Shown: in pieces, positions 25,251 to 62,435 of the stretch
How the letters are laid out: each line of letters opens with the position of its first letter
How positions within the stretch are numbered: position 1 is the first letter of the stretch
IMG/VR virus record: IMGVR_UViG_3300045996_004585
Span: 1,334-65,333 of that record
Length of the DNA stretch: 64,000 nucleotides
From: a virus
Lineage: Duplodnaviria > Heunggongvirae > Uroviricota > Caudoviricetes
Reading direction: 5' to 3' (one strand)
Position numbers and translations under genes: made by a program
The notes under the pieces: model-generated
What the model saw: only the letters and a program-made list of their open reading frames with translations
What the model was told of the DNA's origin: nothing
Database searches by the model: none

Positions 25251-25260
25251 GCGGCGCAAT

Positions 25261-25284: not shown

Positions 25285-25287
25285 GCC

Positions 25288-25316: not shown

Positions 25317-25322
25317 GTTCTT

Positions 25323-33995: not shown

Positions 33996-34024
33996 TTGAC
34001 AAAACTCGTGACATCTGGTACATT
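33996..34024 (+). promoter_or_regulatory. sigma70-like promoter upstream of pnuC
   Basis: TTGACA, 17 nt, TGgTACATT. Transcription would start about 60 nt before the RBS AAGGGAGAG / ATG at 34089. Confidence 0.4.
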
Positions 34025-34088
34025 AATTAGTGAAGAGGTTAGGGTTCCTGATCGCCTAACCAAAAACAAAACAACAAGGGAGAGTACC

Positions 34089-37285: not shown

Positions 37286-37464
37286 TCGATAAGCTCTACG
37301 ATGTTTATTGGACGGATACCAGGAACAACAATGAGCGTTGTTCTGAGAAAGGTGGCCTTACGCGCGAGGAAGCAGAACGGATGATCGCTGAATGGGCGCG
37401 TGAGGCACCATTCTTTGTAGATTGCGTTATCCTACCCCACAATTCTAAGGAAGAACATGCGTAG
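37282..37464 (+). CDS. hypothetical protein
   Basis: ATGA junction. Confidence 0.3.
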   Translation: MIDKLYDVYWTDTRNNNERCSEKGGLTREEAERMIAEWAREAPFFVDCVILPHNSKEEHA

Positions 37465-38467: not shown

Positions 38468-38630
38468 GTAAGCGAGACATCTTTTATATCTTCTTAGACG
38501 GACTTCTTCTTTCTTGGTTCCTTTACGAGGGCGGACGTTGGTTCGCGTTTATTGCTGGCATGTTGTTTGTATTGATTCTAAACAAGTTGTTCGACTGGTA
38601 CTTGCGCCGTCCTCGTGCTACACTGTAATT

Positions 38631-39305
38631 ATGACTCACGTTGTAGCTATCAGCGATCTGCACGGCAACCTGCCTGAGATTCCTGAGTGTGATCTTCTAC
38701 TGATTGCTGGGGATGTCACACCCGTATGGAATCACGAGCGCAAGTTCCAGGCTGACTGGTTGCGTAACGATTTCTCGCAGTGGCTGATGAACGCACCCGC
38801 ACGAGCCATCGTTGGTGTGGGAGGTAACCACGACTTCGTGCTTGAGGATAGCAAGAAGATCGGCTCCGAGCTACCATGGGTTTACCTTAACAACGAATCG
38901 GTGACTCTGGGCCAATTCCATGATGACGAGAACCCTCTAACTATTTGGGGGTCGCCGCTATCCAACATGTTCGGCAATTGGGCTTTCATGAAGTGGGAGG
39001 AAGAGCTTGTTGCCGAGTGGATGAACATCCCTCGTGACATCGACATCCTCATCACACACGGGCCAGCTTACGGCTATGGTGACCGTGTGCCTGATCACTA
39101 TGCGCACGACCGTGATCCACATGTGGGTTCGACTTCGCTTACCTATCAGCTTGAGAACGACGAGTGGCCGAACTTGAAGTTGCATGTCTTCGGGCACATC
39201 CATAACGGGTATGGCTCCTACGTTGGCCCTACTCTCATGGTCAATGCAGCACACGTCAACGAGGAATACAAGCCTGTCAACGCACCAGTGGAGCTAGAGC
39301 TATGA
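38631..39305 (+). CDS. calcineurin-like metallophosphoesterase
   Basis: DLHGN, GDV, GNHD, GH-x-H motif series (ISDLHGNL; IAGDVTP; GGNHDF; FGHIHNG). ATG at 38631 chosen, after a small TM ORF. Confidence 0.6.
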   Translation: MTHVVAISDLHGNLPEIPECDLLLIAGDVTPVWNHERKFQADWLRNDFSQWLMNAPARAIVGVGGNHDFVLEDSKKIGSELPWVYLNNESVTLGQFHDDENPLTIWGSPLSNMFGNWAFMKWEEELVAEWMNIPRDIDILITHGPAYGYGDRVPDHYAHDRDPHVGSTSLTYQLENDEWPNLKLHVFGHIHNGYGSYVGPTLMVNAAHVNEEYKPVNAPVELEL

Positions 39306-45800: not shown

Positions 45801-48800
45801 ACGACTGCCTGAAGAGTTTAGGCGCATAGTTTTAAGTGAACGGGCATCTATGGTCAATGGGCACATCGTTCCGGTCAAGGGAGATTACCTTGGTGGAGTT
45901 CAGTTCTATCTAGAACAAGATCAGATCGTAGACGAGGCGACAGCGGCAGCGATCCAGGATGCGCTCGTGCCCTACGTCGAACAGCTTGAGTTCGAAGAGG
46001 AAGAGTACGTCGAAGAGACTAAGCCCGGTGACCAGGATCAGCTATCGCTATTAGGGAAGACAAGTGCCGATTGGGGTTGGCTCATGAACGATATCGAGTA
46101 CAAAGCACAAGAGATTGCTGCTCGTCACAATTGGGAAATGACATTTGAATGGCGGGGGATGCCAATGTCAGATTGGGATGGCCGAAAGTATTACAATGGC
46201 GATATTGGTGGAAGGGTTGACTTTCAGGTTCCCTGGTTTTTAGCAGAGAGTGACGAGACGTGGTTGCCTGATCAGATTACCACTGTCATATTCACTGCGC
46301 CACCTATTGTTGACAAGCTCACTTACTACATTGCACTACATGAGCTAGGGCACATGGCATTCGTGAGTCAATATGGGCGAGATGTTAACAGTCAGGAAGA
46401 AGAGTTCTGGGCGATGCATTGGGCTATTGAGAACGGTGGTGGCGTAGTGGATCGCGCAACTATGGAATACGCCGCTGATTTCGTCAACTCATATTTCACT
46501 GGCGAGGCTGTAGAGCAAGGTATTAAGCGTCGAGCGCCGTCCCTTCCTTACAAGTATGTTGAAGACACACGTTTCCAGCAATTGCCGCTCAGCAAAGTTG
46601 CAGGCACAACGATGTATCGTGTTCTCCCAAAGAAGTTCCGTGATTTTGTGATGAAGCATGGATTAGTTAGATTGCCGGATCACAGTGGCAGCATGGATGA
46701 TGCGAGATTGTACGTTTTTCAAGACTTAGATTCTGCGCGATTGTTTGCAGAACATTATCGTCATTATCAAACCTCAGATATCTGGCGTATCAATGCGCCC
46801 ACTGATCTGCCGATAAAGTTTGACCCACGAGATTATCCACTTCTCGGCGTTGAGCATCCAGATGTAGATGAAGTTGGCTATTGGAAGCCCACACCATTCT
46901 ATCTCCATGTGGATATTCCGCCCGAATATGTAGAGCTTGTCGATACAGTGGTTGGTGCGCGTCAGTTTGATACAAGTCTATCTAAGACCGCCAACGAGGA
47001 CGACATCTGGGTAGATGGCCTGCCATTTCATGAAGCGCTCGATGGTCAAGTGGCGTTCTTACTCTACCCTGATTTGCTCGTAGCTGCCGAAAGCACGGGC
47101 CACAACGACATTAGACGATGGGTGCGAGAGAACAGGCCCGAGTTGTTGCGTGAGGAAATCCTACAGGGCTACAGCCGCGTTGTCCAGGGCAGGCCATCAG
47201 TAAGCTCATACGAGTATGGCTTGCACACTGAAGACTCGTTCCCTGGCCTAACCAAGCGCGTGTTCAACCTCGCGCTCTTCAACGAGGTTGAAGTTGCCGA
47301 CTTCGATGTAATCCGAGGTTTGAGTAAGGAGGCAGCATTGTCTCCTTCAGACTTTGAGAAGGGCGACTACTACACTGAGGTCATCCACAACATCTGGATT
47401 TACAACGGTGTCACCAAGAAGCTTTACTATGGCCACATAAAGCCAACAGTTGAGCGCAATCTTTCGTCATGGGAAGACAACCACCCTGAGCTTATGCGTC
47501 GGTACCGTGATGAGTTGGGTGGCGAGAATCGAGACAAGAATGTCTATGGTTGGTGGGTGAGGCGCATTGATGATGGATCACTTCGACCTATCATCCATAG
47601 TGACGCTTTCTCTAACACACGACGATGGGAGCCGCTAGTCGAAGAGGCATTTGAAGCAGCAAAGGCTGCGATTTCAGAACAAGAGCGACCCATCGTAGAG
47701 GATTACCGTTATTCATCCAGGTGGTCTGAGATGCCGCCGATTGGCTCACAGTGGGAGTGGCACAACGATCAGTTCGAGAATATGCTAACGGTCGTTCGCC
47801 TCGATCCACGCAACGAGGTTGTCATCATCCGTGGTCAAGCGGGACATGAGGTAGAGATTCATCTAGATGACTGGCACGAGTATGTGAGTGATGGCATGTT
47901 AAAGACGGCAGCAGCAACAGATTACATCTGGGTCTACGATCCTAACACAGGAGAACTACTCATACACGAGGAAGATTATGGATTGGTTAGACACGTGACA
48001 TTGATGGCTCAGCTTGGCGACAAAGAATATGCCAAGACGCTTTGGGGTGGTCACTGGCGCGACGGTGAAATAGATGTGCAGCATTGGCCCGCGAAAATAC
48101 TCGATTGGAATATGTCAATAGAGGAACGAGAGCAGGCAACTCAAGAAGCACTCAAGGAAAAGGAAGACGCATACGCTGCGGTAAGAGCCAAGCTTGGCTC
48201 AGTGCGTGTAGGTGCCGCTATTCCTTATGAGTGGGTGGAGTTATACGATTCAGCCAGCGAGCAATACATGAAGGGTTCTTTGCCATTCGTGTATATAGAT
48301 GGCAAAATCTATATTGCTAATGGGTCAGCTTATCACACGGCGATATGGAGAGCGCTGAAGCGAAACGATTTGGTGCGCCACATTAGCACTGATCAATACG
48401 TTCAGGGATGGGTGAGCATTAGTGGTGATATCCACTTCTATGAGGGCGATGAGGCATGGCCTGACCCTGATCCTGAAGTGCTGAAGCAGATTAAACAGGC
48501 AGTAAGAGAAGCACATGATGAGCGCGTCAATGAGCGAGCCGATATGGGAGACTGGTTAACAACGGCGGCATGGCCGAGTAATCCTGCTTGGGTCTATGAC
48601 CCTGAGGTTGATAAGCTTTACGTTGGCCAATGGCACCAGGACATCATTAGAAGGAACAAGCTGATGGGTAAGGCTAAATTAGAGCGTGACCCTGACGGCG
48701 ACTTTGATTTGGTTCGATTCACTACGTCGCTCGTGCTGGGCTGGCATCATGCTGGCGTCTTCTCTGATTATGGCGCGAGTACTGCAACAGAAGAGCAGAA

Positions 48801-51800: not shown

Positions 51801-53349
51801 CCAGGGCTATACCTTAGATGCTACGTATGTGAACCCGCGCTTGAAGAATGTGGTAGAGCGCTGGTTCGGTCGGCATGCAACATTGGGAGACATCGGCTCA
51901 GACTTCTTCTGTTGGGTCTACTGTGGTCAGTGTAAGCAGCTATGGATCGACGGTTACTCCTACCACGGTGACCTATACCGGAACAATCCTGAGATTAGAC
52001 GGGTGCATGCAAAAGAAGGCCATTCTCTTATCTGGGGTCAAGTCGCACTCTATGACAACCCTCCTATCCGCATGTACTCAGATTGGTATGAAGGCTGGGC
52101 TGATCAGCAAGAGAAGCCAGGAACCGACGATGGCTATGACTATGAAAGAGATGATGAGCTATTCGCAAACGCACAGCAGTTTGGTTACTTCAAGGAAGCT
52201 GAGCCTCTTGTTGAGGCTTGGCTGGATAAGGAGCGCGAAGGATGGAGAAAGGATGCGGCTGTCACCGACTGGGAAGTTGTCGATGTCACCACCATAATGG
52301 AAGGCAATGATAATCGCATCTTCAAGCCTGACCGTATTGCATTTGTAGCTGATACGGAATCTAAGCTCATTGCGATTGGTCGTGGCCTATACCACAAGCC
52401 CTTGATCAGGATGCTGGTAGACAACATGATAGGTAACACAGAAGTCGAGCATGGAGCAGAGCTTAACCGCAACGAAGGCTTGCGTGACAGATTCGTGGCT
52501 GGATACTACTTCCAGGCCGACAAGCATTTCGATCCTGAGTCAGGCTATCACTTAGAAGGAAGAGAGGTTCAGACGGCTGTTGCACTGTACGTGGATCAAC
52601 ATCCGGTGTTAAGCAAGACGGCAGCTATCAAGATTGTAGAGGTCGATACAACAGGCGTGCAGTACGATGATTGGATTGGCGAAGACATCGCAAAGGTGCG
52701 TCGCCCAATGCTCTATCAGCCATGGGACGACACCGTGTACATCGGGCCGACAAAGGGTCTTCATGGGCAGATAGCTAGGAAGCTGGGATGGGATAAGACG
52801 TGGTGGGATGATTCATTGCGAGGCATGATCGTCCGAGATGAAATTTTGTGGTTTGGTAGCGTACCCCAAGAGGCTCAAGATGCCGTGCAAGCTTGGCATG
52901 ATGACAGAAGCCATCTGCGAACAGCAGGAACACAGGACGCTGATTTGGCTTTCGATCCGTTCAGTAATAGGCCCAATGCCAAGGGTCTGCGTGGAGAAGA
53001 CTACGGACTTGACCCCCGTGGAACCTTCGTTTACGTGGACGGTGTGCTATTCTGGGGCGACCGTATTCACCCGCGCATGTTGAAGCAGATTATGGAGGAA
53101 CACTTCGATATCCCCGATCCCAAGATTGCTGACTTCAAGAACTTCATCGCTACGCACGAGACAGCTTTCGGGCGTGTACGTTGGGAAGGTGAGTTCCTTT
53201 GGTACATGGGAGGTACGCCCGAGTTTGCTGAAGAGACAGCGGTGAGTTTCGTTAGTTGGGATTTTGGAGATACCGCGCCTGAAACTAAAGAGAAGGTGTT
53301 GGCTGAAATCCGCAAGTATGCTCCTGACCTAGAAATGGAAGAAGAGTAA
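42835..53349 (+). CDS. giant polyvalent protein (3504 aa) with ~20 repeated modules, HNH nuclease motif and HExxH zincin motif
   Basis: Uninterrupted 10.5-kb ORF (alternative starts at 42856 and 42871). HNH motif CAYCGGPGATSWDHVIPLSQGGQNAIENLLPCHRECN at nt ~44380-44492. HExxH motif ALHELGHMAF at nt ~46339. About 20 copies of the module [FW]-x-[FWY]-h-Y-x-D-G-x-L-Y-h-x(5-7)-H-x-x-h-h-R. Low-complexity linker at ~49380-49800. Confidence 0.8.
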   Translation: MDGLRRSMKQRHMKRQISKLAARVYDALVEDVRANLTPELLKPEFRESPFPTGHCYVAAEAIYHLAGGPESGLKPMRLRMPDGVVHWWLQTAEGEVIDPTHDQYHEPVPYAQGRSGGFLTASPSKRAREVMKRVTGAVKTAQELVLIEPREYKFHGGGYPFFYIPSEQKLYVMPAHAFHTDMALNDPELRELIKNYMVNTYRTTTAPYIPGRIHLDRPGATDGEVDVYGEIVGIDAKNHWQPILQSMVDQWWGTEIPVTTSDYQGDEFEAEPDELGEYRDVLSGYEQQMGRVAKIVNLPAFEKTHDGDEPTKDTWRRTFVYLPTTDTLYLANHNAYHTDIWRWIAEQNPDMDWEPLHNREVEPSLGLIQRNYDDKQLEVHYYHAEGAPLPDHMMFELEEHLGEHMSQVPWQYPRPLADDWYGDWDDDDYGATEQWPTDTKSIARLSTQFDHPIENPVNYDFVPLSPLETTAWDTLTPRERHWWRRKALKLNNYSDNRGKVRPQDLHALYTRYQGFCAYCGGPGATSWDHVIPLSQGGQNAIENLLPCHRECNGQLNDWDQRMNPFDPNSQTKPPGYWGFQPAEAAVDWSRSDRVPYQFGFAFMYHEGELYVTHNGHHPDLMREYLRQQGSQELEAIQGVRAFKEQVKAGKTVFGWVNRDDIEFVSGSAGDDMAWHADPKLKAEAHGAVKQYMQEHKTAGTLSTKFINITDDIWPNYPHKDSSSFAWMYLDGTLYVLNTGHHPDIMRWYLKNKALGSRDLARAFKEAIGEGRAVFGWTVNADSAVLSGNAPDSMARQAPPELQAEALAACDAYIESLRATYKRAGTQPVELMVSDDRRWHFDDYLKRYDRFAWVYFDGTLYCGDLHRDIMAEMRREGLDFRNGAYYGWYDPWGKEAPKQPNGIDYVTDYGEQHEALLPEVEAFFERYPPKAVLDYLKHGTRLGAAPMKVMRVKTPRTKFRGVYGMPFSYVPSLNTIFLADSHTYHTRMWPRLPEEFRRIVLSERASMVNGHIVPVKGDYLGGVQFYLEQDQIVDEATAAAIQDALVPYVEQLEFEEEEYVEETKPGDQDQLSLLGKTSADWGWLMNDIEYKAQEIAARHNWEMTFEWRGMPMSDWDGRKYYNGDIGGRVDFQVPWFLAESDETWLPDQITTVIFTAPPIVDKLTYYIALHELGHMAFVSQYGRDVNSQEEEFWAMHWAIENGGGVVDRATMEYAADFVNSYFTGEAVEQGIKRRAPSLPYKYVEDTRFQQLPLSKVAGTTMYRVLPKKFRDFVMKHGLVRLPDHSGSMDDARLYVFQDLDSARLFAEHYRHYQTSDIWRINAPTDLPIKFDPRDYPLLGVEHPDVDEVGYWKPTPFYLHVDIPPEYVELVDTVVGARQFDTSLSKTANEDDIWVDGLPFHEALDGQVAFLLYPDLLVAAESTGHNDIRRWVRENRPELLREEILQGYSRVVQGRPSVSSYEYGLHTEDSFPGLTKRVFNLALFNEVEVADFDVIRGLSKEAALSPSDFEKGDYYTEVIHNIWIYNGVTKKLYYGHIKPTVERNLSSWEDNHPELMRRYRDELGGENRDKNVYGWWVRRIDDGSLRPIIHSDAFSNTRRWEPLVEEAFEAAKAAISEQERPIVEDYRYSSRWSEMPPIGSQWEWHNDQFENMLTVVRLDPRNEVVIIRGQAGHEVEIHLDDWHEYVSDGMLKTAAATDYIWVYDPNTGELLIHEEDYGLVRHVTLMAQLGDKEYAKTLWGGHWRDGEIDVQHWPAKILDWNMSIEEREQATQEALKEKEDAYAAVRAKLGSVRVGAAIPYEWVELYDSASEQYMKGSLPFVYIDGKIYIANGSAYHTAIWRALKRNDLVRHISTDQYVQGWVSISGDIHFYEGDEAWPDPDPEVLKQIKQAVREAHDERVNERADMGDWLTTAAWPSNPAWVYDPEVDKLYVGQWHQDIIRRNKLMGKAKLERDPDGDFDLVRFTTSLVLGWHHAGVFSDYGASTATEEQKQRALELAEEYYADVDDDPRYTRTAAVPNPVPKYRWVVMTDGTVFVDEDDIYLNHPQLFRMKAKPLGYTKDDIADAGYRSQSYMRMLPWYQENADTYAVEDDERVKRHTGNLVVRDDPRTDIFIFTYSPQSDTMIIGNRRWNHTRYWQSDDQGLIAGGVNLTSGLWFYDESMVTAEIEARVEELIDEWRSSNIGVGDNTTTPTVSSHQSTGTTAENSGQSRPILSTTVLQDSALVPSTAQLAQLDGQVKGNHDKLWGVMTAPHPSAWMPATYPAITATHTAMDTTHDLLTSEWSPTPRPVHLDPHQGGTIGYPQGYTGKVLFPTDTTSAFSGTRLADWDEDSPNIDVAYTEAHGWRVYLLDTSLIPGPPPWENLRRPAHWSKEQKLIFIGSEGTHHNPLLRGLILTGLVQSPEDINDLKWEIILPTGEIRMSLRFEEGAQEAVNEALGTDYDPLKKNIPVGLEEGLRVDTSRTGAEESMSENEMSYGGWTLRRLPDTTVYGMGTRWSWVANPDTREIVYGSGWTHRPLFKELGLRGDHAVNLKERSKPAAGIVWDDGTSWLYGNAFIGNTVETIMKDVYLKSSANEPPRLPRHTGAIQLREGWVWGEWHHPEDVYTPQPFIYQNHTLWLGGDDAPTHPFVVRKYGLDREKPMLPGWVYHESKQIAFQSWEENVDRSLIEEAMPLILASLPEGYQRVPQRTTAASEWTIHLVDNAPYEDVGSDWLWAPTRFPVLFQKERKIMFVGTQPGSHHVPLMRAMKESVPFQAYTTPTIRPTLSWDFLDNGKPGRGDHAIGSTPGGRQAVQKAWAMLHPKKPEPADQLSLFEAKTSDFYPRERAFAFIDGRLIFGTSHSSILRRAREEGLLLSDDPQIDLGWMQQLDDDHWEPESISYDNNAFVRSSSEYRAQMLAEARRLWPEHMRNLKVSKDSLVLVDQHLWDDVAPHVKTFKLHDSETQTDVGKITYGIIEDEKRIHVGTMHVDGLYRKTDAFMRLIEPLVPYLSQGYTLDATYVNPRLKNVVERWFGRHATLGDIGSDFFCWVYCGQCKQLWIDGYSYHGDLYRNNPEIRRVHAKEGHSLIWGQVALYDNPPIRMYSDWYEGWADQQEKPGTDDGYDYERDDELFANAQQFGYFKEAEPLVEAWLDKEREGWRKDAAVTDWEVVDVTTIMEGNDNRIFKPDRIAFVADTESKLIAIGRGLYHKPLIRMLVDNMIGNTEVEHGAELNRNEGLRDRFVAGYYFQADKHFDPESGYHLEGREVQTAVALYVDQHPVLSKTAAIKIVEVDTTGVQYDDWIGEDIAKVRRPMLYQPWDDTVYIGPTKGLHGQIARKLGWDKTWWDDSLRGMIVRDEILWFGSVPQEAQDAVQAWHDDRSHLRTAGTQDADLAFDPFSNRPNAKGLRGEDYGLDPRGTFVYVDGVLFWGDRIHPRMLKQIMEEHFDIPDPKIADFKNFIATHETAFGRVRWEGEFLWYMGGTPEFAEETAVSFVSWDFGDTAPETKEKVLAEIRKYAPDLEMEEE

Positions 53350-55623
53350 ATGGCACCACGAGTTCTATATCACTACAGTGACCCAGCTAACCGCGAGTCC
53401 ATTCAGTTAGGAGGGCTTTCGCCTGACTTCGATTTCACAGGTCTTGGCGCGGTCTATCTCTCCACTGAGCCTCTTGACACTTCAGATGAGGCTGACGTGT
53501 GGCGCGTTTATACTCAGGGACTTGACGTTGTTGACGATGTTTCAACGCCAGGTTTCGAAGGCGAGTGGTTCATGTACTACGGTGTCATTCCGCCCGAGCG
53601 CCTAGAGTTGATGGGCGAGTGGGAAAAGGCAGCCAAGTGGAAGAAGATGGCCGAGACTTACATGGGGTGGCCCAAGTTCGACCGTGGTGACAAGGTGATC
53701 GTTTTGGGCTATGGAGAGAAGGGCACTGTCGATTCTGCTCACTGGGTAGAGGATCGAGACGAATGGTGGTATCGCGTCTGGACTATTGTCGATGGTATTC
53801 ATGAGCTTACTCCTGTTCCAGAAAGCGACCTTGAGCGCCTTAGCGCGGGACTCGATGATAATGCTGACCTAGATCAGCCGTCTGCCTGGACGCTCAAAGA
53901 CTTCGGAATCCCACCTGAAGCAGAAGAATACTTCCGTTCAGCGGGATTACGTGACCAAATTGAGTGGATACGCGCTCAAGTGGGGATAGATGGTGAAGAG
54001 TTTGAGCCAACCAGGGCAGCGACACCCTGGGCTAAGGGTAAGTCAAATGGAATGTGGTACTGCCGTAAGTGTGGCGAAGGGCCATGGGATAAGTTGTGGT
54101 ACGCGCAACAACACACACAATCTCGACATCCAATAGCGAAATATGTTACAATGGATAGGATGAGTGCTAACCAAGCACAGCTTGACGCTATCCGCGAAAC
54201 CTATGAGGCGGATATCAACGCCCGTGCCGCAACGGACGCGCTGACGGCTGCCGGTGGACGGGTCTTCATCGTTGGTGGGGCCGTTCGTGACGCTTTCCTT
54301 GGAAGACCGTCCAAGGACGTAGATTTGATGTGTCAAGGCTTGACTGGCGACGAGATTATGGCGGCGCTGTCTCCCTTGGGCATCGTCAAGCTGACGGGCG
54401 AAGCGTTCGGCGTCTACCGCTTCAGGCTCCCTAACACAGACGCAAGTCAAGAGGTTGAGATTGCCCTTCCTCGTACCGAGCGCTCCACAGGCGCTGGCCA
54501 CAAGGACTTTGAGGTTCAGACTGATCCTTACCTCGACCCTGTGGTCGATCTACAGCGCCGTGACTTCACTGGAAACGCGATGGCCTATGATCCTGTCGGC
54601 AATGAGCTTCTCGACCCGCACGGGGGCGCTGATGACCTTACAGCGGGTCGCCTGAGGTTGGTCAATGACAGCGCGCTTGCAGATGACCCTCTGAGAATCG
54701 TGCGCGCACTTGTGGCAAACGCTCGCTTCGGACTTCAGCCTGATGAAGACCTACTTGACGCGCTGTCTGCGAACGCACACAGACTAAAGTCTCTCCCTGG
54801 CGAGCGCATCCAGATGGAGATGGATAAGCTGCTCGCTGGCGACAACCCTGCGGGGGCTATGGAGATTGCTGCTGCCTCAGGGTTGATTGACTACATGGTG
54901 CCCGAGCTTGCCGCTGCGGTTGGCTTCGATCAGATGAACCCGCACCATGACCTGAGTGTCTACGATCATACGATGGAAGTCTTAAGGGCGGCAGCACGCC
55001 TAACAACCGATCCTGACATTCGCCTAGCTGCACTCTTCCACGATGCTGGTAAGCCCGAATCCTTCTGGCGAGATGAGACTGCACCCGAGGGTGGCGGCGG
55101 GCACTTCTACAAGAAGGTGTTGGAGGACGGCACTGAGATTGGGGAGAACCATGAAGAGGTTTCTGCTCGCTTGGTCGAGGCGTTCATGAAGCGCCTGCGC
55201 TACCCTAACGACCGCATGAAGCGTGTCACGACGCTGTGCGCCAACCATATGTTCCCGTACTTCAAGACCGAGAAGGGGGCACGTAAGTTCTTGGCCGCAC
55301 TCGACGGTGACTTCAAGCTGGCTGAGGATTTGCTGACTCTTCGTGAGGCCGATGCTTCAGGTAAGAGGGATGGTTCAATCAATGAGCGTGACCGCAAGGC
55401 AATCGACCGCGCAAGAGAATTGCTCGCAGCAGCGAAGGAAAACAACACTGCCGTCACGGTGAAGGACTTGGCTGTGAATGGCCACGACTTGATGCAGTTT
55501 GGACTGAAAGGGCCGCAGATTGGGCAAGCTCAGAAGAAGCTGCTTGAAGTTATCATCGACAATCCAGAACTCAATGAACGAGAATCATTGCTTAGACTGT
55601 TGAGGGACGGCCTGGTGGGTTAA
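53350..55623 (+). CDS. CCA-adding-enzyme-like nucleotidyltransferase + HD domain protein with Tpt1/KptA-like ART-fold N-terminal domain
   Basis: Pol-beta head motif VFIVGGAVRDAFLGRPSKDVDLM; HD motifs HHDLSVYDHTMEV and LFHDAGKP; N-terminal VLYHYSDPANRESIQLGGLSP ... VYLSTEP ... VIPPERLEL. Confidence 0.7.
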   Translation: MAPRVLYHYSDPANRESIQLGGLSPDFDFTGLGAVYLSTEPLDTSDEADVWRVYTQGLDVVDDVSTPGFEGEWFMYYGVIPPERLELMGEWEKAAKWKKMAETYMGWPKFDRGDKVIVLGYGEKGTVDSAHWVEDRDEWWYRVWTIVDGIHELTPVPESDLERLSAGLDDNADLDQPSAWTLKDFGIPPEAEEYFRSAGLRDQIEWIRAQVGIDGEEFEPTRAATPWAKGKSNGMWYCRKCGEGPWDKLWYAQQHTQSRHPIAKYVTMDRMSANQAQLDAIRETYEADINARAATDALTAAGGRVFIVGGAVRDAFLGRPSKDVDLMCQGLTGDEIMAALSPLGIVKLTGEAFGVYRFRLPNTDASQEVEIALPRTERSTGAGHKDFEVQTDPYLDPVVDLQRRDFTGNAMAYDPVGNELLDPHGGADDLTAGRLRLVNDSALADDPLRIVRALVANARFGLQPDEDLLDALSANAHRLKSLPGERIQMEMDKLLAGDNPAGAMEIAAASGLIDYMVPELAAAVGFDQMNPHHDLSVYDHTMEVLRAAARLTTDPDIRLAALFHDAGKPESFWRDETAPEGGGGHFYKKVLEDGTEIGENHEEVSARLVEAFMKRLRYPNDRMKRVTTLCANHMFPYFKTEKGARKFLAALDGDFKLAEDLLTLREADASGKRDGSINERDRKAIDRARELLAAAKENNTAVTVKDLAVNGHDLMQFGLKGPQIGQAQKKLLEVIIDNPELNERESLLRLLRDGLVG

Positions 55624-55624
55624 C

Positions 55625-55909
55625 GTGATGTTTGATCCTTCACTACTCAGCGAGAAATTGAGAGATGGAACAGTCTCGTATGAGGGCGGCTTTAATCTGG
55701 GCTTGAAGGGTCACGTTCGTCAGTTGCTTGTCATCACTGGGCAAATCAAACATGAGTACGATGATGGCATGGGTGCCGCGACCGGCAAGATTGGCAAAGC
55801 ATGGGTCATGGGCAACTTAGATGGACTAGCTACTGGTGGCCACGAAGACATGTTGACCGAAGATCAGATGAGACTTGCGCACGAGTGGCTAGACTCAGAA
55901 CCTGACTAG
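55625..55909 (+). CDS. hypothetical protein
   Basis: Sits between two large genes; GTGATG junction. Confidence 0.35.
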   Translation: MMFDPSLLSEKLRDGTVSYEGGFNLGLKGHVRQLLVITGQIKHEYDDGMGAATGKIGKAWVMGNLDGLATGGHEDMLTEDQMRLAHEWLDSEPD

Positions 55910-58065
55910 TGCGTACACCAATAAGTGCTATGCAGAAAACAGCACGCACAACGCTTTACCACGTTACTCCACAAGCCAACAGAGAGAGCATCTTGGCTGA
56001 AGGATTAAATCCTGCCTATGCCCCTGGTCGTGATTACGTGTGGCTATGGGATGATCCACAGGAGATGTCTGAAATACTTGTTAATAGTCTGACGTGGGGC
56101 GGGGATCGAACACCCGATGTTTGGCTGGTTGATGGTTCCGGTATCCAATTGCAACGTGATCCCCATCCAAGTGGCTGGGCGCATGCATTTGCTACGCGCG
56201 ATGCGATCCCGCCCGATAGACTCCAACTGATGCCTCCTGAAAGGTTCTCTCTAGCCCGAACCAGTAATATTTTCGACCCAATCGAGAAGTCGCTCGACCA
56301 ACAGGTGTTCCGGGGCATCGAGCCACGGCAGCACCACATTGACTGGATTCTTAGACTGTACGCACGAGCGCTGATGCAGCGATTCGGCGTCCAGGGAGAC
56401 GGCTGGACTGACCTGTACTTCACTGGCTCGCTGACGACCTATCAGTACAGCGAGACAAGCGATGCTGACATCTCTGTCTTCGCCAACTGGGATCGTTTCA
56501 CTGAAGAGCTAGGCATGGATGTTCAGACGACTCGTAAGGAGTTGATCGCCATGAGCATCGACCATCTCGATGGAACCTTCCTCCCAGGCACCACGCACCC
56601 GCTACAGTTCTTTGTAGTACCCCAGGGAGTACTTCCATCCGACCTGTACCAGCCGGGGCTTAGAAGCGCTTACAGCCTCGATGACCGTATGTGGTATCAG
56701 GAACCTGAGCCGGATCGTGTTCACGAGATTGCTGTCGAGCTACCGGAATTCATGGCTCGTGCCGCTGATATGGCTGAAAAGATGACTGAAATGCTCGACC
56801 ACGATCCTGAGTCTGCCCGCCAACTCTGGCACGACATTCACAAGAAGCGTCAGCTTGATCAGCAGGCAGGGCTTGGTGACTTTAGTGAAGGGAACATCGT
56901 CTATAAGTACCTGCTTCACGAGGGGCTGTTCGACCGCATCCGTGAAGAACTAGGCGAGTACATCGCCAAGACGGCCATTTCACGTGGACAGGCTTGGGTC
57001 TATGATCCTAAAACTGACACGCTAGCTTCTGGCCATCCTTTTCATGCGCACGTTTTGCATGATATGGGTTATCATTCTGGCAAAGACCCGGCACTTCATG
57101 GATTTATCTATGGTGTCGTCAACGATGCTGGACTATATTCTGTGTTGATCAAAACTGATTTTCCTACGGTGGATTACCGTGACTACATTCCTCAGATTGA
57201 GGTCAAGCTGACAGAACTGATGGGCATGCCCGTTAAGAATCGGTGGGTACTAGAGGATAGCGACCGGCTGAGTCAGAGGAAAGTTGCAGCACTCCTTGAT
57301 GAAGAGACAATCGCTGATCTAACTGCTCACATCTACGAGCTAGCGGAGAAATATAGAATTGAGATTCGATGGGGAGAAGATAGGCATAATGCTTGGGCTG
57401 CGCCTGATCTTGTCATGACTCCGCAAATTCGCTATGACATCGATTACCTTGTGGCTCTTCATGAGGTAGGCCACGTTGTCTTGCAGATGGAAGGGCAGCA
57501 CCCTGACTGGGAGTTTTACGACGAATGGTCAGAGGTTGAGGAAGAGGCTCAAGTCTGGCGGTGGGCACTCGATAACACGATCATTCCTATTAGCCCGGAG
57601 ATGCTACGTCAAGCGAAGTGGGATTTGGGCACGTACTATGAGCATGCTACCCAGACATTTGGCAAGCCGCGCGAACCAGAGGAAGTTGGAGAGAATTACA
57701 GATGGCTTCTCAATTTCCAGAGCGCCAACCTTTGGGATAGAGTTACGACCAAGGTCATCTACGACTTTGACAAAGACCAGATTGTGCTTGGAACACAGGC
57801 AACCCTAGCTGACTTGCCACATTCTAAGATCATCGGGGAGTACGCCGACGAGGCAGTTACTCTCTTTGAAGCAGAGAAGCAGTGGATCAACCCCGGTTAC
57901 TTCCACCGCTTATGGCAGCACACCTTCCCGAATCGACCGCTCAAGGATGTCTACTACCGGCGCGGCGACAACTCGGAATACAAACTCAAGACAAGGGTAA
58001 AGCAATGGACGCGAGGCGACTTAGAAGACGGGCCGTATCCATGGGAAGACGGCGATACAGATTAG
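55909..58065 (+). CDS. multidomain protein: Tpt1/KptA-like ART-fold N-domain, minimal nucleotidyltransferase motif, one copy of the giant-protein module, HExxH zincin motif
   Basis: N-terminal TLYHVTPQANRESILAEGLNP ... AIPPDRLQLM (paralogous to the 53350 N-terminus); NTase motif FTGSLTTYQYSETSDADISVF; module WVYDPKTDTLASGHPFHAHVLHDMGY; zincin motif ALHEVGHVVL. Confidence 0.6.
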   Translation: MRTPISAMQKTARTTLYHVTPQANRESILAEGLNPAYAPGRDYVWLWDDPQEMSEILVNSLTWGGDRTPDVWLVDGSGIQLQRDPHPSGWAHAFATRDAIPPDRLQLMPPERFSLARTSNIFDPIEKSLDQQVFRGIEPRQHHIDWILRLYARALMQRFGVQGDGWTDLYFTGSLTTYQYSETSDADISVFANWDRFTEELGMDVQTTRKELIAMSIDHLDGTFLPGTTHPLQFFVVPQGVLPSDLYQPGLRSAYSLDDRMWYQEPEPDRVHEIAVELPEFMARAADMAEKMTEMLDHDPESARQLWHDIHKKRQLDQQAGLGDFSEGNIVYKYLLHEGLFDRIREELGEYIAKTAISRGQAWVYDPKTDTLASGHPFHAHVLHDMGYHSGKDPALHGFIYGVVNDAGLYSVLIKTDFPTVDYRDYIPQIEVKLTELMGMPVKNRWVLEDSDRLSQRKVAALLDEETIADLTAHIYELAEKYRIEIRWGEDRHNAWAAPDLVMTPQIRYDIDYLVALHEVGHVVLQMEGQHPDWEFYDEWSEVEEEAQVWRWALDNTIIPISPEMLRQAKWDLGTYYEHATQTFGKPREPEEVGENYRWLLNFQSANLWDRVTTKVIYDFDKDQIVLGTQATLADLPHSKIIGEYADEAVTLFEAEKQWINPGYFHRLWQHTFPNRPLKDVYYRRGDNSEYKLKTRVKQWTRGDLEDGPYPWEDGDTD

Positions 58066-58242
58066 ACGGCAACAAGTTTTGGGCGGGCACAGCTATCGGT
58101 CTTGGCGTTTGGGAGACGACCGCCATCACAACTAAGAAGGTTCCGACCATCACTAAGACGTGCCAATCAGCACGGAGTAGATACCGCCGCCGCGCTGAAG
58201 TGGTGATTGCTATGTGGCTCTTGGGCTTAGCTGCCCACCTGT

Positions 58243-58503
58243 TCAAGCAATAATCTGATAGAACGGGCCGCTCATGATCTTCTCTGCGGCCTTGCGAATC
58301 TCAGGATCGTCGGACTTGAGCGCGACATCGAGTGCCGCGAACATATCCATTGCGGCCTCCGCGCCAAGGCTTGATGCCTTGAGTGCCTTGTCCTGAACCG
58401 CATTGAGGCGAGTTACAAGCCCTCGATTGCGTCCGCCTGGGCGAGCCACCTTGATGAGCCTCTCGGCCATCTCATGCGTGTACATTGAATCATGCGTCGG
58501 CAT
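58243..58503 (-). CDS. hypothetical protein
   Basis: First gene of a short minus-strand cluster; stop overlaps the next minus gene. Confidence 0.4.
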   Translation of the reverse strand: MPTHDSMYTHEMAERLIKVARPGGRNRGLVTRLNAVQDKALKASSLGAEAAMDMFAALDVALKSDDPEIRKAAEKIMSGPFYQIIA

Positions 58504-58909
58504 TGTTTTCCCTCCACTCTTGGTTGTATCTTTCCATGAACTTCTCTAGCGGGCCACCCCAGCGCCAATCGCCGTCTACGAACTTGTGGCCCTCTATCTT
58601 GAGCATCCACGTGAACATCTCGCGGAAGACCCCCTCGTTTTGGTACGAAGGATTGACATAGGCAGAACGGAGGAAAATGAAGTCTCCCTCGTCTGACCAC
58701 GTTAGGGAGCCGATCAGGTCGGCTCCGTCGAAAGCGTTGATGCCATAGCGGGTGCGGCCTTCAAACTCTGGCTCAAAGACCAGAGTGGCGCTGTTCCAGT
58801 TAAGGAATTCGTCTCCCGCTTGGATACGCTGATACTCAACCATCTGCTGGCTCAATCTCAATCTGGTAGTGCCAACAGAGATTTGGGTAGTGTGCATCAC
58901 GATCATCAC
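58490..58909 (-). CDS. hypothetical protein (possible GNAT-like fold)
   Basis: SAYVNPSYQNEGVFREMFTWM is weakly reminiscent of acetyltransferase motif A; low confidence. Confidence 0.35.
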   Translation of the reverse strand: MMIVMHTTQISVGTTRLRLSQQMVEYQRIQAGDEFLNWNSATLVFEPEFEGRTRYGINAFDGADLIGSLTWSDEGDFIFLRSAYVNPSYQNEGVFREMFTWMLKIEGHKFVDGDWRWGGPLEKFMERYNQEWRENNADA

Positions 58910-59057
58910 ATGGAAGCTTGGTCACCATGAGAGTTGCCCACTCCCAATGACCTGTCTTGTAATACTCGCCAAAAGCACGGTCGAGCGCTCGTTGTTCAGC
59001 AGACGACTGTTTCCAGCCGCCATCATTAACTTCGCTGCTGATATAGACGAAGGTCAA
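58836..59057 (-). CDS. hypothetical protein
   Basis: Minus-strand ORF. A further 39-aa ORF (59057..59176) read by eye overlaps by ATGA. Confidence 0.35.
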   Translation of the reverse strand: MTFVYISSEVNDGGWKQSSAEQRALDRAFGEYYKTGHWEWATLMVTKLPCDDRDAHYPNLCWHYQIEIEPADG

Positions 59058-59228
59058 TGATCCTCTCGCTCTGCGTCATTGAAGTCATCGCTACCGAAAA
59101 GCTCGATAAGCTCTTCAAGCGTGTAGTCACTCCAATCGAGGCGGGAAGCCTCGCGGATGTTCTCTGCGCTCATCATACTTATATTATAACACACTTTCGA
59201 ACTGCTCGCAAGCGACAGCTAATAGACG

Positions 59229-62200
59229 ATGATAGGCAACTTCCTCTGGGCCGATGGCCAGCTTAAGCTGGTTCCCGGCAACCTCACTCACCCCATGAAG
59301 CTTCTGATGGAGGCTAAGTCCTCCAACTTCTGTGCGGGCGAGTTTCACCTAGATGACCATGGGCCTGACTTCGATAGCATCTCTCTTGAATGGGAAGCTG
59401 GCAAATGCCCTACCGATAACGACTTGCGGCGCATGATCCGTCTAGAGATTGACAGCTACGGTCGAGAGGCACGTTATCGCAAGCGTGTAGCGGCTACTTC
59501 AGAAGACACTGAGCCAGTCGGCAAGGACGTAGGATTCCTTCGTGACCCGCGTCCGAATCTCTACCCTCCACTCTTCCGTGGCAGTGAAGAAATTTCACCT
59601 GATGTCATCGGAAAGCTGAAGGCCCACGTCCTGAATGCATTGGAGGCAGAGCTTCCCAATCCAGACAGTTTTATCTACTTCACCATCTACGGAAGCGGCA
59701 TCTCGTACAACTGGGACGAGGCCGGTGACATGGATGTGCAGATGTGGGTCGATATCGAAAAGTACGAGGGCGAGGACATGACTTCCGATGACCTGATCGC
59801 CACCATTCGCCGTATCGTTCAGCCGATCAACTTCCCGACCTTTAACGACCTTGGCCTTGAATCTCCCGATGACTCGGCTGAGGGCACGATGATGATTCAG
59901 TATTACCCCAAGCCGGGTAGGGGCACGCCCGAAGAGAACCTCGCATCTAAGCCTTATGCCTGCTACGACCTTGAGACAGGCGAGTGGCTAGAGAAGGCGA
60001 AGCCCATCACACCAACTTTCTACGGGGAACACTTCCTCATGCTTGAGCCGAAGTGCGAAGACATCGCACTACAGGCCGAAGCGCTCATTGGCGAGCTAGA
60101 GAGGAATATCCTCAACTGGCAGTTTTGGTACAGCATGTATCAAAGGTTCGACAATGACCACTATCGGGAGCGGTATGAAAAGGCTCAACAAAACGCTGAA
60201 CAGGAGAAGGCAGGAGTCATTGCCCTGTTCGAAGGTGTGTTCGGGGGAAGGGCAAAGGCTTACTCCCCTGAAGGTAAGGGAATCGAAGACGAGCGAGATA
60301 TGGTACAGAAGATGCTTGAGGTCTGGGGAATCTTTCAGAAGCTGAAGCACTACGCTCGTGAGGCATTGCCATGGGAAGAGAAGGAGATGCCGAACGCACC
60401 CAAAAAGACTGCGGGTGGCGACACATGGGATGGCAGTCCTGGTCTATACACTGAGGAACATAACCCACGTGGATTACCTCGCCCAATCTGGAAAGGCATG
60501 CCTGTTCCATGGACAGGTGATTCTGAAATGACATTAGATGGGTATGTACCTAACTTTCCTAACACCAGAGAGGACAGAATGAATCAGGCTGAAAATCTTG
60601 ACCTTTGTTTGCTTTGCGGCCTGGAACTTTCTGATCCTGTAATAGTTTTCGCAGACTCATCAGGCGGCATCGTAGATGGCGGTTTGCACCCTCGTTGCGC
60701 AAAAATCACGAAGGCACATTGCCCCCATTTGCGCGACGATGATGGGTACTACACTCTTATATCTATACCTTTATCTTCTTGGAATCATGGCAACAATGGC
60801 ATCGTGCCAGAAGATAATTTCCTCTTTGAATCTGCCAAGCTGGCTGAAGTCACTGATTCGATCTACGAGGCAATCAGAGCCAGTGGTGGCGGCACGTATG
60901 ATGCTCAAACGCTACAGCCCGCACAGCATTCACATGGATTCTATGTCGGCATCAAAGGCGCTGAGTTAAAGCTGCCCGTCGAAGAGATGACCGACGACAC
61001 CATCGAGGAATACGCGGCACACACCACAACCCCGTTTGTGGGCGCATGGATTAGCGACGGCTATGTCTTCCTAGACAACGTTCTTTGGGTAGAGAATCCT
61101 CACGATGCCACGATCCTTGGCAAGCAGCAAGATCAGCAGGCTATCTGGGACATTCGTAATCAGCGAGAGATTTGGCTCAAGAAGGGCTGGGCTATCACAA
61201 CGATGGCTGAGCGCACGGGCGATCCTGAGCTTGATATGCTGATTGAAGAGTTTAAGGCAAGTGATCCATTTGACCGGGGCATCCTAGACATAGCCCAATA
61301 CGAAGAGTTGCGCGATCCCGAAACGGCAGAAGGTTTGTGTGTGTTGCTCACCAATGCCTTTACTGGCTTCATTCGACGCGAGGGAATTGAGGCTTGGCCA
61401 GCGGATTCTCCTGGCACTATGGGTGGCAATGTTCCAGGGTTCTTTTCGCCCGACGAACTAGGATACGCAGACAGGAAGCGCCCTGGCTTCAATTCACATT
61501 CGGCGGCGATGGTTCGAAAGGACGGCCAGACGTACATGATTGACTTCACACCTGCCCAATATGGTTACTCAGAATTTCCAATGGTGCAGAAGCTCGATGG
61601 CCAGGAGTGGCAACGCGAATGGACAAGCAGTCTGCACAAGACCGCTGACTGGCAGGACATCCAAGACAAGGCACAGCGCTTACGCGGAACAGGTGTTACG
61701 GTTCTTCGCAACGGCTACGAGAACGTGGTTGGTGAGGTTCCGTCCGAGTCTCGCCCTGGCATGATGCACTACCCGGAGATTTGGCGACAAGACCCGAACC
61801 GTGGCACGATCACGCTTTGGGATTGTACCTGCGAGTGGGCAGGCTTCTCGTGGGGCAGAACCCGCCAGTGGAAGAAGTTTGAGGGCCGACCGTGCGCACA
61901 CGTTCTAGCACTGTTTTGGGAGGCGTCAACGCAACCCATTGAAGATGATGCGCAGACGTTCATGCCTACGCCAGAAGAGGAAATTCCACCACCTGGGCAG
62001 CTTACAGACGCCTTGCGCGCTACCGTACCAGGACAGCCGCAGCAGGCACCCGTCATCCCTGGCTCACAACCGACGCAGCCACAGCGTGCGCCCGCTCCAC
62101 CCGTCTCTGAGTTGACCACGGTGAATGAAGCAGAAGATCAACAGCTAACCCTGCCGGGCACATTCTCTCGCTGGTATCGAGCAAGCAACTTCATGAACGG

Positions 62201-62435
62201 CGACTACGTGCGCACCAACGTCAAAGTAGACGGTTTCGATGATCGTGAAACCTACTATGTCGTGCCTCGCAACATGATTGGCGAGGTCATCTGGGCAGAT
62301 GATGAGAGCGCTGTCGTCATCTTCTCAATCAACTCTAAAGCTCTTGGCCCTCATAACGTGCGAGTAGAAGCGCCAGTAGAGTCATTCTCCCTTGTGCCGC
62401 GCACGAGGGGCACAGCCCCAAGGCGAAGACGCTAA
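59229..62435 (+). CDS. multidomain protein with Pol-beta-type nucleotidyltransferase motif, SWIM zinc finger and Pro/Gln-rich linker (1068 aa)
   Basis: N-terminal module copy FLWADGQLKLVPGNLTHPMKLLMEA; NTase motif YGSGISYNWDEAGDMDVQMWVD; SWIM CTCEWAGFSW ... RPCAHVLAL (CxCx(n)CxH); linker PPPGQLTDALRATVPGQPQQAPVIPGSQPTQPQRAP. Confidence 0.6.
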   Translation: MIGNFLWADGQLKLVPGNLTHPMKLLMEAKSSNFCAGEFHLDDHGPDFDSISLEWEAGKCPTDNDLRRMIRLEIDSYGREARYRKRVAATSEDTEPVGKDVGFLRDPRPNLYPPLFRGSEEISPDVIGKLKAHVLNALEAELPNPDSFIYFTIYGSGISYNWDEAGDMDVQMWVDIEKYEGEDMTSDDLIATIRRIVQPINFPTFNDLGLESPDDSAEGTMMIQYYPKPGRGTPEENLASKPYACYDLETGEWLEKAKPITPTFYGEHFLMLEPKCEDIALQAEALIGELERNILNWQFWYSMYQRFDNDHYRERYEKAQQNAEQEKAGVIALFEGVFGGRAKAYSPEGKGIEDERDMVQKMLEVWGIFQKLKHYAREALPWEEKEMPNAPKKTAGGDTWDGSPGLYTEEHNPRGLPRPIWKGMPVPWTGDSEMTLDGYVPNFPNTREDRMNQAENLDLCLLCGLELSDPVIVFADSSGGIVDGGLHPRCAKITKAHCPHLRDDDGYYTLISIPLSSWNHGNNGIVPEDNFLFESAKLAEVTDSIYEAIRASGGGTYDAQTLQPAQHSHGFYVGIKGAELKLPVEEMTDDTIEEYAAHTTTPFVGAWISDGYVFLDNVLWVENPHDATILGKQQDQQAIWDIRNQREIWLKKGWAITTMAERTGDPELDMLIEEFKASDPFDRGILDIAQYEELRDPETAEGLCVLLTNAFTGFIRREGIEAWPADSPGTMGGNVPGFFSPDELGYADRKRPGFNSHSAAMVRKDGQTYMIDFTPAQYGYSEFPMVQKLDGQEWQREWTSSLHKTADWQDIQDKAQRLRGTGVTVLRNGYENVVGEVPSESRPGMMHYPEIWRQDPNRGTITLWDCTCEWAGFSWGRTRQWKKFEGRPCAHVLALFWEASTQPIEDDAQTFMPTPEEEIPPPGQLTDALRATVPGQPQQAPVIPGSQPTQPQRAPAPPVSELTTVNEAEDQQLTLPGTFSRWYRASNFMNGDYVRTNVKVDGFDDRETYYVVPRNMIGEVIWADDESAVVIFSINSKALGPHNVRVEAPVESFSLVPRTRGTAPRRRR

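Follow-up and report, generated by a model that had tools for sequence, protein, structure and literature searches.

In phage polyvalent proteins, ADP-ribosyltransferase (ART) domains of the H-Y-D type number from one to twelve per protein; their neighbours include GNAT domains, and a zincin peptidase acts as the hub (Iyer et al. 2017, PMC5512222). Phage CCA-adding enzymes have been viewed as tRNA-end repair enzymes (PMC7824862), and 2H enzymes, in what has been described as a KptA-2H-Macro RNA-end pathway, open the cyclic phosphates found on the product of Tpt1 and at RNA ends (PMC9503650). Here we analyse a gene block from an uncultivated soil phage, contained in a DNA window of 64 kb (the whole stretch under study, positions 1,334 to 65,333 of the IMG/VR record IMGVR_UViG_3300045996_004585), in which a predicted CCA-adding enzyme preceded by a short ART-like domain (mini-ART) is followed by two large proteins with a Pol-beta-type nucleotidyltransferase (NTase) module. 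The block resembles the published polyvalent proteins (PMC5512222) in that giant multidomain phage proteins join unrelated enzymes and carry multi-copy ARTs and an HExxH module, with GNAT, HNH, 2H and methyltransferase neighbours. It departs from them in its constant scaffolds, for which it uses a CCA-adding enzyme and two NTase modules that are new. In the limited library of literature that we searched, polyvalent proteins, phage KptA and phage CCA enzymes are described separately only, and no KptA-lobe-like mini-ART family, no such NTase scaffolds and no CCA fusion are described.

A preliminary description of this DNA had noted three consecutive large open reading frames (ORFs), each with a Pol-beta NTase motif. 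All three were recovered at the coordinates and with the motifs reported, on the plus strand: P757 (53350-55623, 757 aa), P718 (55909-58065, 718 aa with a GTG start; the JGI gene call starts at the ATG at 55930 and has 711 aa) and P1068 (59229-62435, 1068 aa; the JGI call has 1046 aa, yet residues 1-22 are conserved among homologues). The three NTases also held up, one being of a known kind and the other two coming from unannotated paralogous families. Together with a polyvalent-type protein of 3504 aa that is encoded upstream of P757 (42835..53349, plus strand), these proteins are scaffolds that receive swapped, unrelated cargo, which in this phage consists of three mini-ART copies, a zincin-like HExxH module and a SWIM-like finger. 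The region is the central part of a gene block that is conserved across a lineage of uncultivated phages, mostly of 100-220 kb. We give roughly even chances to the reading that the block encodes polyvalent-type effector scaffolds whose NAD+-, RNA- and protein-directed modules can be swapped and whose target is host defence, tRNA or other RNA ends being the likeliest common substrate. Our confidence in the anatomy of the block is high, while that in its chemistry, which we infer, is low to moderate.

Conservation of the block and its predicted CCA-adding enzyme

An exact protein look-up led to two contigs with the same gene order, namely (giant ORF), CCA enzyme, NTase protein, small genes and a SWIM protein of ~1100 aa. 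With 30 further IMG/VR loci retrieved with the NTase alignment, this gave a sample of 32 loci. A CCA ORF lies no more than 10 kb from the NTase gene in 22 of these loci, and directly upstream on the same strand in 21, while a homologue of the P1068 C-terminal region is found downstream of the NTase gene in 26. The CCA core is always C-terminal in its ORF, behind an N-terminal extension of 0-1700 aa. In some relatives, mini-ART, CCA enzyme and NTase are joined in one polypeptide. The loci L023 and L024 have the CCA core and the NTase module in a single ORF, and the CCA ORF of locus L019 begins with a mini-ART, as P757 does. Among the top mini-ART proteins, P0208 reads as five mini-ARTs followed by CCA and NTase, P0331 as ART, zincin, CCA and NTase, each in a single polypeptide, and P0310 and P0314 are ART-CCA fusions. 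The neighbouring ORFs of the related loci had no informative PHROG match.

These relatives are found almost solely in uncultivated viral contigs of 100-220 kb. INPHARED searches, at the DNA and protein levels, with the region and with P718, gave no match and hence no cultured relative. Of 185,579 species genomes only three contain the NTase module. Two are metagenome-assembled genomes (MAGs), one of Burkholderiales and one of Acidobacteriota, and in the third, of Candidatus Solirubrobacter pratensis, the module lies on a 602-kb scaffold with a probable prophage. This scaffold belongs to the isolate Candidatus Solirubrobacter pratensis URHD0082 (locus L037, NZ_AUEK01000007.1 264365-271042, with which L018 is paired); its relative of the module probably corresponds to the 152-kb prophage prediction IMGVR_UViG_2522572155_000001 and may offer a handle for experiments. 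The GC content across the region (0.51-0.56) is similar to that of the remainder of the window, and there is therefore no mark of a recent insertion.

P757 is best described as a predicted divergent class-II CCA-adding enzyme with an HD domain, in agreement with the preliminary description. The tRNA nucleotidyltransferase core, comprising head, neck, body/tail and HD (aa 537-646), occupies aa 291-751 (54220..55602, plus strand). In Pfam, P757 matches the PolyA_pol head (3e-19), the PolyA_pol_RNAbd neck (1.3e-13) and HD (4.5e-10), and marginally the tRNA_NucTran2_2 body/tail (2.9e-6, 27.8 bits against a cut-off of 27), while the PHROG tRNA nucleotidyltransferase profile matches aa 304-728 (5.6e-72). 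The best NCBIfam models are CCA equivalogs, with TIGR02692 reaching 181 bits and being covered from position 16 to 462 of 466; PcnB reaches 95.8 bits. Residues 305-746 align to a solved tRNA nucleotidyltransferase (PDB 3wfo), HD domain included, and the translation contains the head motifs GGAVRD...DVD and RRDF and, as templating motif D, DDPLR. With neck, body/tail and HD all matched, as in the bacterial and phage class-II CCA enzymes with HD (phrog_2244), P757 is more than a generic poly(A) polymerase head. It differs from these enzymes in staying under every curated NCBIfam equivalog cut-off (181 against 438.8 bits), which marks it as a divergent member, and in its N-terminal extension of ~300 aa with a mini-ART; in relatives, moreover, the core is sometimes fused to the new NTase. 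CCA-adding and CC- or A-adding specificity cannot be told apart from the sequence of P757. Phage CCA enzymes as such are common, with at least 500 INPHARED records, all of them below 35% identity to P757.

The long N-terminal extension (about 290-300 aa), which had also been noted before, matched no family as a whole, and a homologue search with aa 1-300 returned nothing. It begins with a mini-ART (aa 1-90; 53350..53619, plus strand), recognised by paralogy and by hidden Markov model (HMM), in which the His, the Tyr and both conserved Asp of the family are kept. This is followed by a mobile middle domain of no recognised fold (aa 108-199; 53671..53946, plus strand), which recurs at the C-terminal end of the P718-family protein P0009 in the locus L002 of another phage (tblastn, 44% identity, E 1e-10, L002 10355-10612); a PDB sequence search with the middle region gave noise only. 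A C2H2-like motif found by regular expression, Cys-x2-Cys...His-x5-His, precedes the CCA head at aa 238-260 (54061..54129, plus strand) and was not seen at the equivalent position in the other CCA ORFs examined.

The TAA of the giant ORF abuts the ATG of P757 (window 53347-53352), with zero spacer and in the same frame. This arrangement suggests that stop read-through would give a giant-ART-CCA fusion, comparable to the single polypeptides P0208 and P0331, or otherwise that the two genes are coupled by termination and reinitiation. We considered that the giant ORF and P757 might be a split form of the long CCA ORFs of relatives and dropped this idea, as the giant protein has no BLAST similarity to the N-terminal extensions of those ORFs. 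Several of the long CCA ORFs start with a YunG-family domain (L006, L008 and L019; Pfam E 2e-6 to 7e-5). The N-terminus of the giant protein seems, by eye, to resemble these YunG-type starts.

The mini-ART domain

Tpt1 is a two-lobe enzyme, with the R-H-R-R tetrad lying mostly in the N-terminal RNA lobe. The preliminary description had compared the N-terminal domains of P757 and P718 to the other lobe of Tpt1/KptA and had taken them for paralogues. The paralogy is evident from the 33% identity between aa 2-88 of P757 and aa 12-108 of P718 (E 2e-6). A structure model of the P718 copy (aa 10-110; 55936..56238, plus strand) has the ART fold, with Tpt1 as the nearest relative. Escherichia coli KptA scores 22.6 bits with the mini-ART profile and aligns to it in hhalign with 94.5% probability (E 8e-8), the match being limited to residues 97-180 of KptA, which form the NAD+ lobe. 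The domain also fits the features of the ART superfamily (a split beta-sheet fold, His/Arg on strand 1 and an aromatic residue on strand 2) and has the NAD+-lobe feature of Tpt1/KptA, a His on strand 1 (LYHGT). Model and profiles together point to an ART fold and not to an unrelated one. Direct searches stayed sub-threshold, both against PDB (Tpt1 E 0.1, DarT 0.3) and against Pfam (PTS_2-RNA 0.023 in 1 of 27 copies, PARP 0.12, and DUF7002); the gathering score of PTS_2-RNA (PF01885) was not reached by the mini-ART, and neither P757 nor P718 matched this family.

The likeness to Tpt1/KptA was thus sustained at the level of fold and remote homology, and not at that of 2'-phosphotransferase function. 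Because the mini-ART begins at residue 1-10 of P757 and P718, the N-terminal RNA lobe with R-H-R is absent. The fourth Arg of the tetrad is present in P718, yet it falls outside the conserved columns of 221 near-complete copies, on which all column statistics given here are based. The R-H-R-R residues are therefore not conserved, three belonging to the absent lobe and the fourth being variable. What is conserved is a different pattern: the strand-1 His in 98% of the copies, the Gly of 'GL' in 100%, an Arg in helix 1 in 72%, and two family-specific Asp, one where the third strand begins (76%) and one in the loop before it (81%). At the position of the second His of Tpt1, 96% of the copies have an aromatic residue (Y 77%, F 11%, W 8%). 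The strand that aligns to KptA 'VWLT', and to the catalytic-Glu strand of other ARTs, is without an acid. Judged by these residues, the mini-ART is not a Tpt1 orthologue and probably not a 2'-phosphotransferase of the Tpt1 type, and the constraint pattern argues for a putative NAD+-using enzyme.

In contrast to Tpt1/KptA, the mini-ART of ~100 aa is mobile and often present in multiple copies in giant phage proteins. An HMM scan over 1.84 billion cluster representatives (50% identity) detected 3179 mini-ART proteins at E <=1e-3 and 575 at E <=1e-10. They have up to 5-7 matched stretches per protein. The longest of them measures 4516 aa, and others, of 100-130 aa, stand alone; these small ones match no Pfam family. 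The top mini-ART proteins also bear GNAT, NUDIX and PcfJ domains. Among the relatives of P718, the HMM found 31 copies at variable positions. In our phage, a third copy lies in the giant protein (aa 1254-1371; 46594..46947, plus strand; HMM E 3.8e-21), with an Arg in place of the otherwise conserved His. The mini-ART is thus a mobile cargo domain that is shuffled between proteins. By sequence it is a family different from the polyvalent ARTs (ART-PolyVal/Tox-ART-HYD2), since the polyvalent ART prototype, the virion RNA polymerase (vRNAP) of Roseovarius Plymouth podovirus 1 (RPP1, CBX87992.1), scored 2.7 bits with the mini-ART profile, and no match to the Pfam ART-PolyVal families was found in 37 mini-ART sequences at E values up to 1.

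The NTase modules and their cargo

A database search with P718 returned 179 relatives. The segment corresponding to aa ~115-358 is shared by all 120 relatives listed and that corresponding to aa ~605-700 by about 74 of the 120; the remainder of the protein is variable. The first of these segments is the Pol-beta NTase module of P718 (aa 115-358; 56251..56982, plus strand), delimited by alignments and Foldseek, which consists of an alpha/beta half and a helical half and has the motif TGS...SDxD. P1068 has such a module at aa about 104-380 (59538..60368, plus strand), with the motif YGSG...GDMD. Residues 104-259 of P1068 match the module HMM with E 1.3e-12, and the profiles of the two families align in hhalign over 216 columns with 97.6% probability (E 4e-12). 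As judged by these alignments, P718 and P1068 share a predicted paralogous Pol-beta NTase module that has so far escaped annotation, and the NTase assignment of both in the preliminary description is borne out.

Both modules carry G[SG]-x9-13-DxD on an NTase alpha/beta core. An alignment of 23 module sequences is free of variation in T-G-S, in S-D-x-D, at one more Asp and at ~30 other positions, among them the module's own residues Q.F, G.RS and KR..D..G.GD..E.N..YK. T172 and D185 are invariant in 118 modules of the P718 family, and in the P1068 family 49-51 of 51 sequences keep G, S and D..D. An Asp at position 107 of alignment A3 (~aa 221 of P718, LDGT) is invariant in the P718 family, the aligned position in the P1068 family being non-acidic. 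No Pfam, NCBIfam or PADLOC model was matched at threshold, PADLOC giving HD/Cas3-HD cross-matches only, and PDB sequence searches with P718 and P1068 gave noise only. Weak signals came from NTP_transf_2, MTPAP-like, Adenyl_cycl_N and SidM_N, and the sole match of the module profile in PDB was the DrrA/SidM AMPylase, aligned on GS...DxD with E 0.5. Compared with the Pol-beta NTases that have a helical C-domain, namely the ANT(9)/AadA/LinB aminoglycoside-lincosamide NTases, MNT, terminal uridylyltransferases (TUTases) and the cGAS/DncV-like NTases (CD-NTases), the module gave weak matches that reached no family threshold, and it is distinguished from them as the constant part of cargo-swapping proteins. 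It is like RlaP, the RNA-ligase-associated NTase (PMC7824862), in being a phage Pol-beta NTase that is genomically tied to an RNA-end enzyme. It is unlike RlaP in that this partner is a CCA enzyme and not an RNA ligase, and Pfam RlaP found no match among the 23 module members scanned at E values up to 1.

The cargo of the P718 relatives, which precedes the constant NTase and C-terminal modules or lies between them, includes 2H/LigT phosphoesterases, NUDIX, a nucleotide cyclase, S-adenosylmethionine (SAM) methyltransferases, GNAT, HNH, an ImmA-type peptidase and an intein. One cargo is named 'prophage maintenance system killer protein' by JGI, which we read as a Fic/Doc-type domain. In P718 itself the cargo is a zincin-like module, recognised by motif (HExxH...EEE, aa 464-580; 57298..57648, plus strand). 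A module of the same family is present in the giant protein (aa 1128-1224; 46216..46506, plus strand; local HMM E 1.1e-25), and further copies recur in relatives of P1068 and in other giant proteins. The HExxH is invariant and the EEE follows 22 residues on, with H-E-x-x-H and EEE both invariant in alignment A4. The module profile had no PDB sequence match, so that the zincin peptidase identity is taken from the motif. The module is a candidate self-processing peptidase. The conserved C-terminal module of P718 (aa 605-700; 57721..58008, plus strand) has no assigned function.

P1068 follows the same design. Its relatives keep aa 1-395 and 800-1068, and the middle varies, containing PcfJ, inteins, methyltransferases, 2H, HNH or GNAT. 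The conserved N-terminal region (aa 1-95; 59229..59513, plus strand) was defined from the homologue alignment. The variable cargo region (aa about 400-800; 60426..61628, plus strand) contains Cys-rich and phrog_17808-like segments, is covered by 3-18 of 81 homologues, and gave noise only in a PDB search. The conserved C-terminal region (aa 800-1068; 61626..62435, plus strand), seen in homologues and by Pfam, has a SWIM-like CxCx(n)CxH motif at aa 864-897. This motif is present as DCTC...PCAH, the Pfam score being below the cut-off (E 0.021, 14.8 against 19.6 bits), and JGI gives the P1068 homologue P0170 the name 'SWIM zinc finger'. In one phage, intein/LAGLIDADG domains occur in both NTase-scaffold families (P0014 and P0138, on a contig of 124,614 bp), which suggests that the insertion sites are strongly conserved and probably essential.

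The giant protein has, in addition to its zincin-like module and its mini-ART, an HNH domain (aa 516-556, 6e-8) and short repeats. The repeat 'F.Y....LY......H..i', of no recognised fold, is counted 8 times by HMM and about 20 times by regular expression. Residues 345-376 of P718 resemble one copy of it. The possibility that the P718 C-terminal module or the P1068 N-terminus is a copy of this repeat was not established (hhalign E 0.28 and 0.008, respectively).

Small ORFs lie between the large ones. An ORF of 94 aa separates P757 from P718 (55625..55909, plus strand); it matched no family and had no match in the loci L001 and L002. Two overlapping ORFs of 86 aa and 139 aa lie between the two NTase genes on the minus strand (58243..58909), with a weak GNAT signal (E 0.014); tblastn against L001 and L002 found no match to them. 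On the minus strand of L002 the equivalent position is taken by genes of 86 and 138 aa, without detectable similarity to the ORFs of the window. Promoter and terminator scans of the region gave no excess over the shuffled expectation. The best promoter-like site of the region is on the minus strand (59211-59183), just upstream of the 86/139-aa ORFs. An ORF of 323 aa that follows P1068 (P323; 62674-63645) shares 55% identity with the middle part of a protein of 786 aa with a PEP-utilizers domain in a related phage (L002 16635-18995). Elsewhere in the window, a MoxR-type AAA ATPase is followed by a DUF2201 metallopeptidase/VWA protein (23736-27077), a conserved phage pair to which no role has been assigned. 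An ATP-dependent DNA ligase (PHROG 4.7e-86; 29443-30642) and a calcineurin-like phosphoesterase (38514-39305) are also encoded, either of which might serve nucleic-acid end repair.

Possible roles of the scaffolds and their modules

If the block encodes polyvalent-type scaffolds aimed at host defence, its proteins would be made in or delivered into the host to act on host RNA, chiefly on tRNA 3' ends. The CCA enzyme with its HD phosphohydrolase would rebuild ends that have been trimmed or blocked by phosphate, and the new NTases would attach nucleotides, or transfer them, to substrates of this class or to the host proteins that attack. Using NAD+, the mini-ART would ADP-ribosylate RNA, at a phosphate or a hydroxyl, or else a host protein, and its choice of substrate would come from the carrier protein and not from an RNA lobe of the Tpt1 type. 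The NAD+ salvage genes of the phage would feed this chemistry. Delivery in the virion is suggested here by analogy with the polyvalent-protein literature and not by the locus in the window.

Several observations make a role in tRNA-end healing or anti-defence plausible, namely the recurrent ART-CCA and CCA-NTase fusions, the co-occurrence with 2H domains and the NAD+ salvage genes. In the P718 family, of the 15 proteins that have 2H cargo 9 also have a mini-ART, as do 16 of the 104 that lack 2H (odds ratio 8.25, p 4.5e-4 in a Fisher test that counts related sequences as independent, so that p is optimistic). The window encodes a PnuC-like nicotinamide riboside/nicotinamide mononucleotide (NMN) transporter (33984-34808) and an NadR-type NMN adenylyltransferase (37457-38467), a pair that may form a phage-borne NAD+ salvage route relevant to NAD+-depleting defences and to ART domains. 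The 64-kb window and 15 related loci proved free of tRNA genes; the CCA enzyme thus does not serve an adjacent phage tRNA cluster and presumably acts on host tRNA. A permuted 'tmRNA*' called by ARAGORN at 49541-49965 (minus strand), antisense inside the giant ORF, is most likely a false positive and was treated as such.

A number of points weigh against scaffolds that are directed at host defence and at RNA ends. The activities and substrates of every domain are predicted from sequence, and in the mini-ART the canonical catalytic Glu on strand 5 is not assignable. The fold matches of the NTase modules are weak (Foldseek E 2e-3, TM-scores 0.2-0.3), and a cargo repertoire that includes cyclase, GNAT, methyltransferase, HNH and Fic is not RNA-specific. 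The ORFs scanned contained no RNA ligase, polynucleotide kinase (PNK) or Macro domain. Next to the block, no gene was identified as structural, the sole virion-type signals being beta-helix fibre-like ORFs ~30 kb upstream and a weak portal-like match in P323 (E 0.0025). Finally, 123 of 137 top mini-ART proteins are without any of the three NTases, which identifies the mini-ART as general cargo and not as a dedicated partner of the CCA enzyme. Taken with its variable position and multiple copies, this scarcity of NTase partners is more in keeping with a conflict effector than with a housekeeping enzyme for healing.

That scarcity also speaks for the strongest alternative, in which the proteins are modifiers of host proteins used in host takeover: the mini-ARTs would ADP-ribosylate proteins, the NTases would AMPylate or otherwise nucleotidylylate them, and the CCA enzyme would be a passenger in the polyprotein pool. 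The T4 enzymes Alt, ModA and ModB, as well as the H-Y-D polyvalent ARTs, are thought to ADP-ribosylate host proteins, and MNT antitoxins and DrrA/SidM modify proteins with nucleotides. The DrrA/SidM AMPylase is also the only PDB profile match of the NTase module, and the multi-copy arrays with GNAT, NUDIX and PcfJ match published polyvalent ARTs (PMC5512222). We nonetheless regard this alternative as unlikely, because the mini-ART profile scores far higher on KptA than on the RPP1 vRNAP, no Pfam ART-PolyVal match was returned for the 37 sequences scanned, and both the fusion or adjacency of the NTases to a tRNA-specific enzyme and the 2H enrichment point to RNA.

More improbable in our view is the specific proposal that mini-ART, CCA/HD and NTase work together as a machine that depends on NAD+, frees blocked tRNA 3' ends and restores them, its parts being encoded by separate genes in this phage and joined in a polyprotein in relatives. 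The lesions that it would reverse are those set by anti-phage systems on the acceptor end, namely a trimmed CCA, nucleotides in excess, or phosphates and pyrophosphates at the terminus. If true, this would be a counter-defence of a class new to phages, and the Tpt1 fold would have found a new use without its RNA lobe.

Taken literally, the preliminary description would make the N-terminal domains Tpt1/KptA 2'-phosphotransferases that act with a CCA NTase and an HD phosphoesterase as a tRNA-end healing toolkit. The CCA/HD and NTase parts of this toolkit were confirmed, while its Tpt1-type 2'-phosphotransferase was not. It is true that Tpt1 is the nearest relative of the mini-ART in fold and in sequence, that 2H domains, which process the Tpt1 product (PMC9503650), are enriched alongside it, and that ART-CCA fusions are recurrent. 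With the RNA lobe missing, the fourth Arg unconserved, the second His replaced by Tyr, Phe or Trp, and PTS_2-RNA out of reach, we consider the literal toolkit improbable; moreover, arrays of up to 5-7 copies would be unexpected for a repair enzyme.

These arrays would be easier to understand if the mini-ARTs were non-catalytic binders, that is, sponges or sensors for NAD+ or for immune signals derived from ADP-ribose, with the NTase modules serving as packaging scaffolds. The lack of an assignable catalytic Glu, the loss of the conserved His from the giant-protein copy and the inteins in both scaffold families would agree with this. We give it little credence, since the His and the two Asp are conserved over the 221 copies and the invariant GS and DxD of the NTase modules argue for catalysis. 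We regard as very improbable the suggestion, made in the preliminary description and finding no support here, that the two extra NTases make or destroy cyclic-oligonucleotide signals (as CD-NTase-like or anti-CBASS enzymes): some homologues bear cyclase, NUDIX and 2H cargo and CdnC/CdnE are among the Foldseek matches (probability 0.5-0.87, TM 0.2-0.27), but aminoglycoside NTases, TUTases and MNT score as well at TM-scores of 0.2-0.3, no PADLOC, Pfam or NCBIfam CD-NTase model is matched, and the conserved partner is a tRNA enzyme.

The mini-ART family, the NTase module of the two families and their linkage to a CCA enzyme are not represented in Pfam, NCBIfam, the PHROG functional annotation or PADLOC. 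As polyvalent-type scaffolds aimed at host defence, the proteins point to a new kind of counter-defence set that is predicted to be injected or to act early. Even a conservative reading adds new domain families to the phage effectors, together with a scaffold logic of constant catalytic ends and a variable middle. If the linkage is functional, tRNA 3' ends would be a major battleground for phage polyvalent proteins, and the proteins described here would provide defined constructs with which to find the host systems that are countered.

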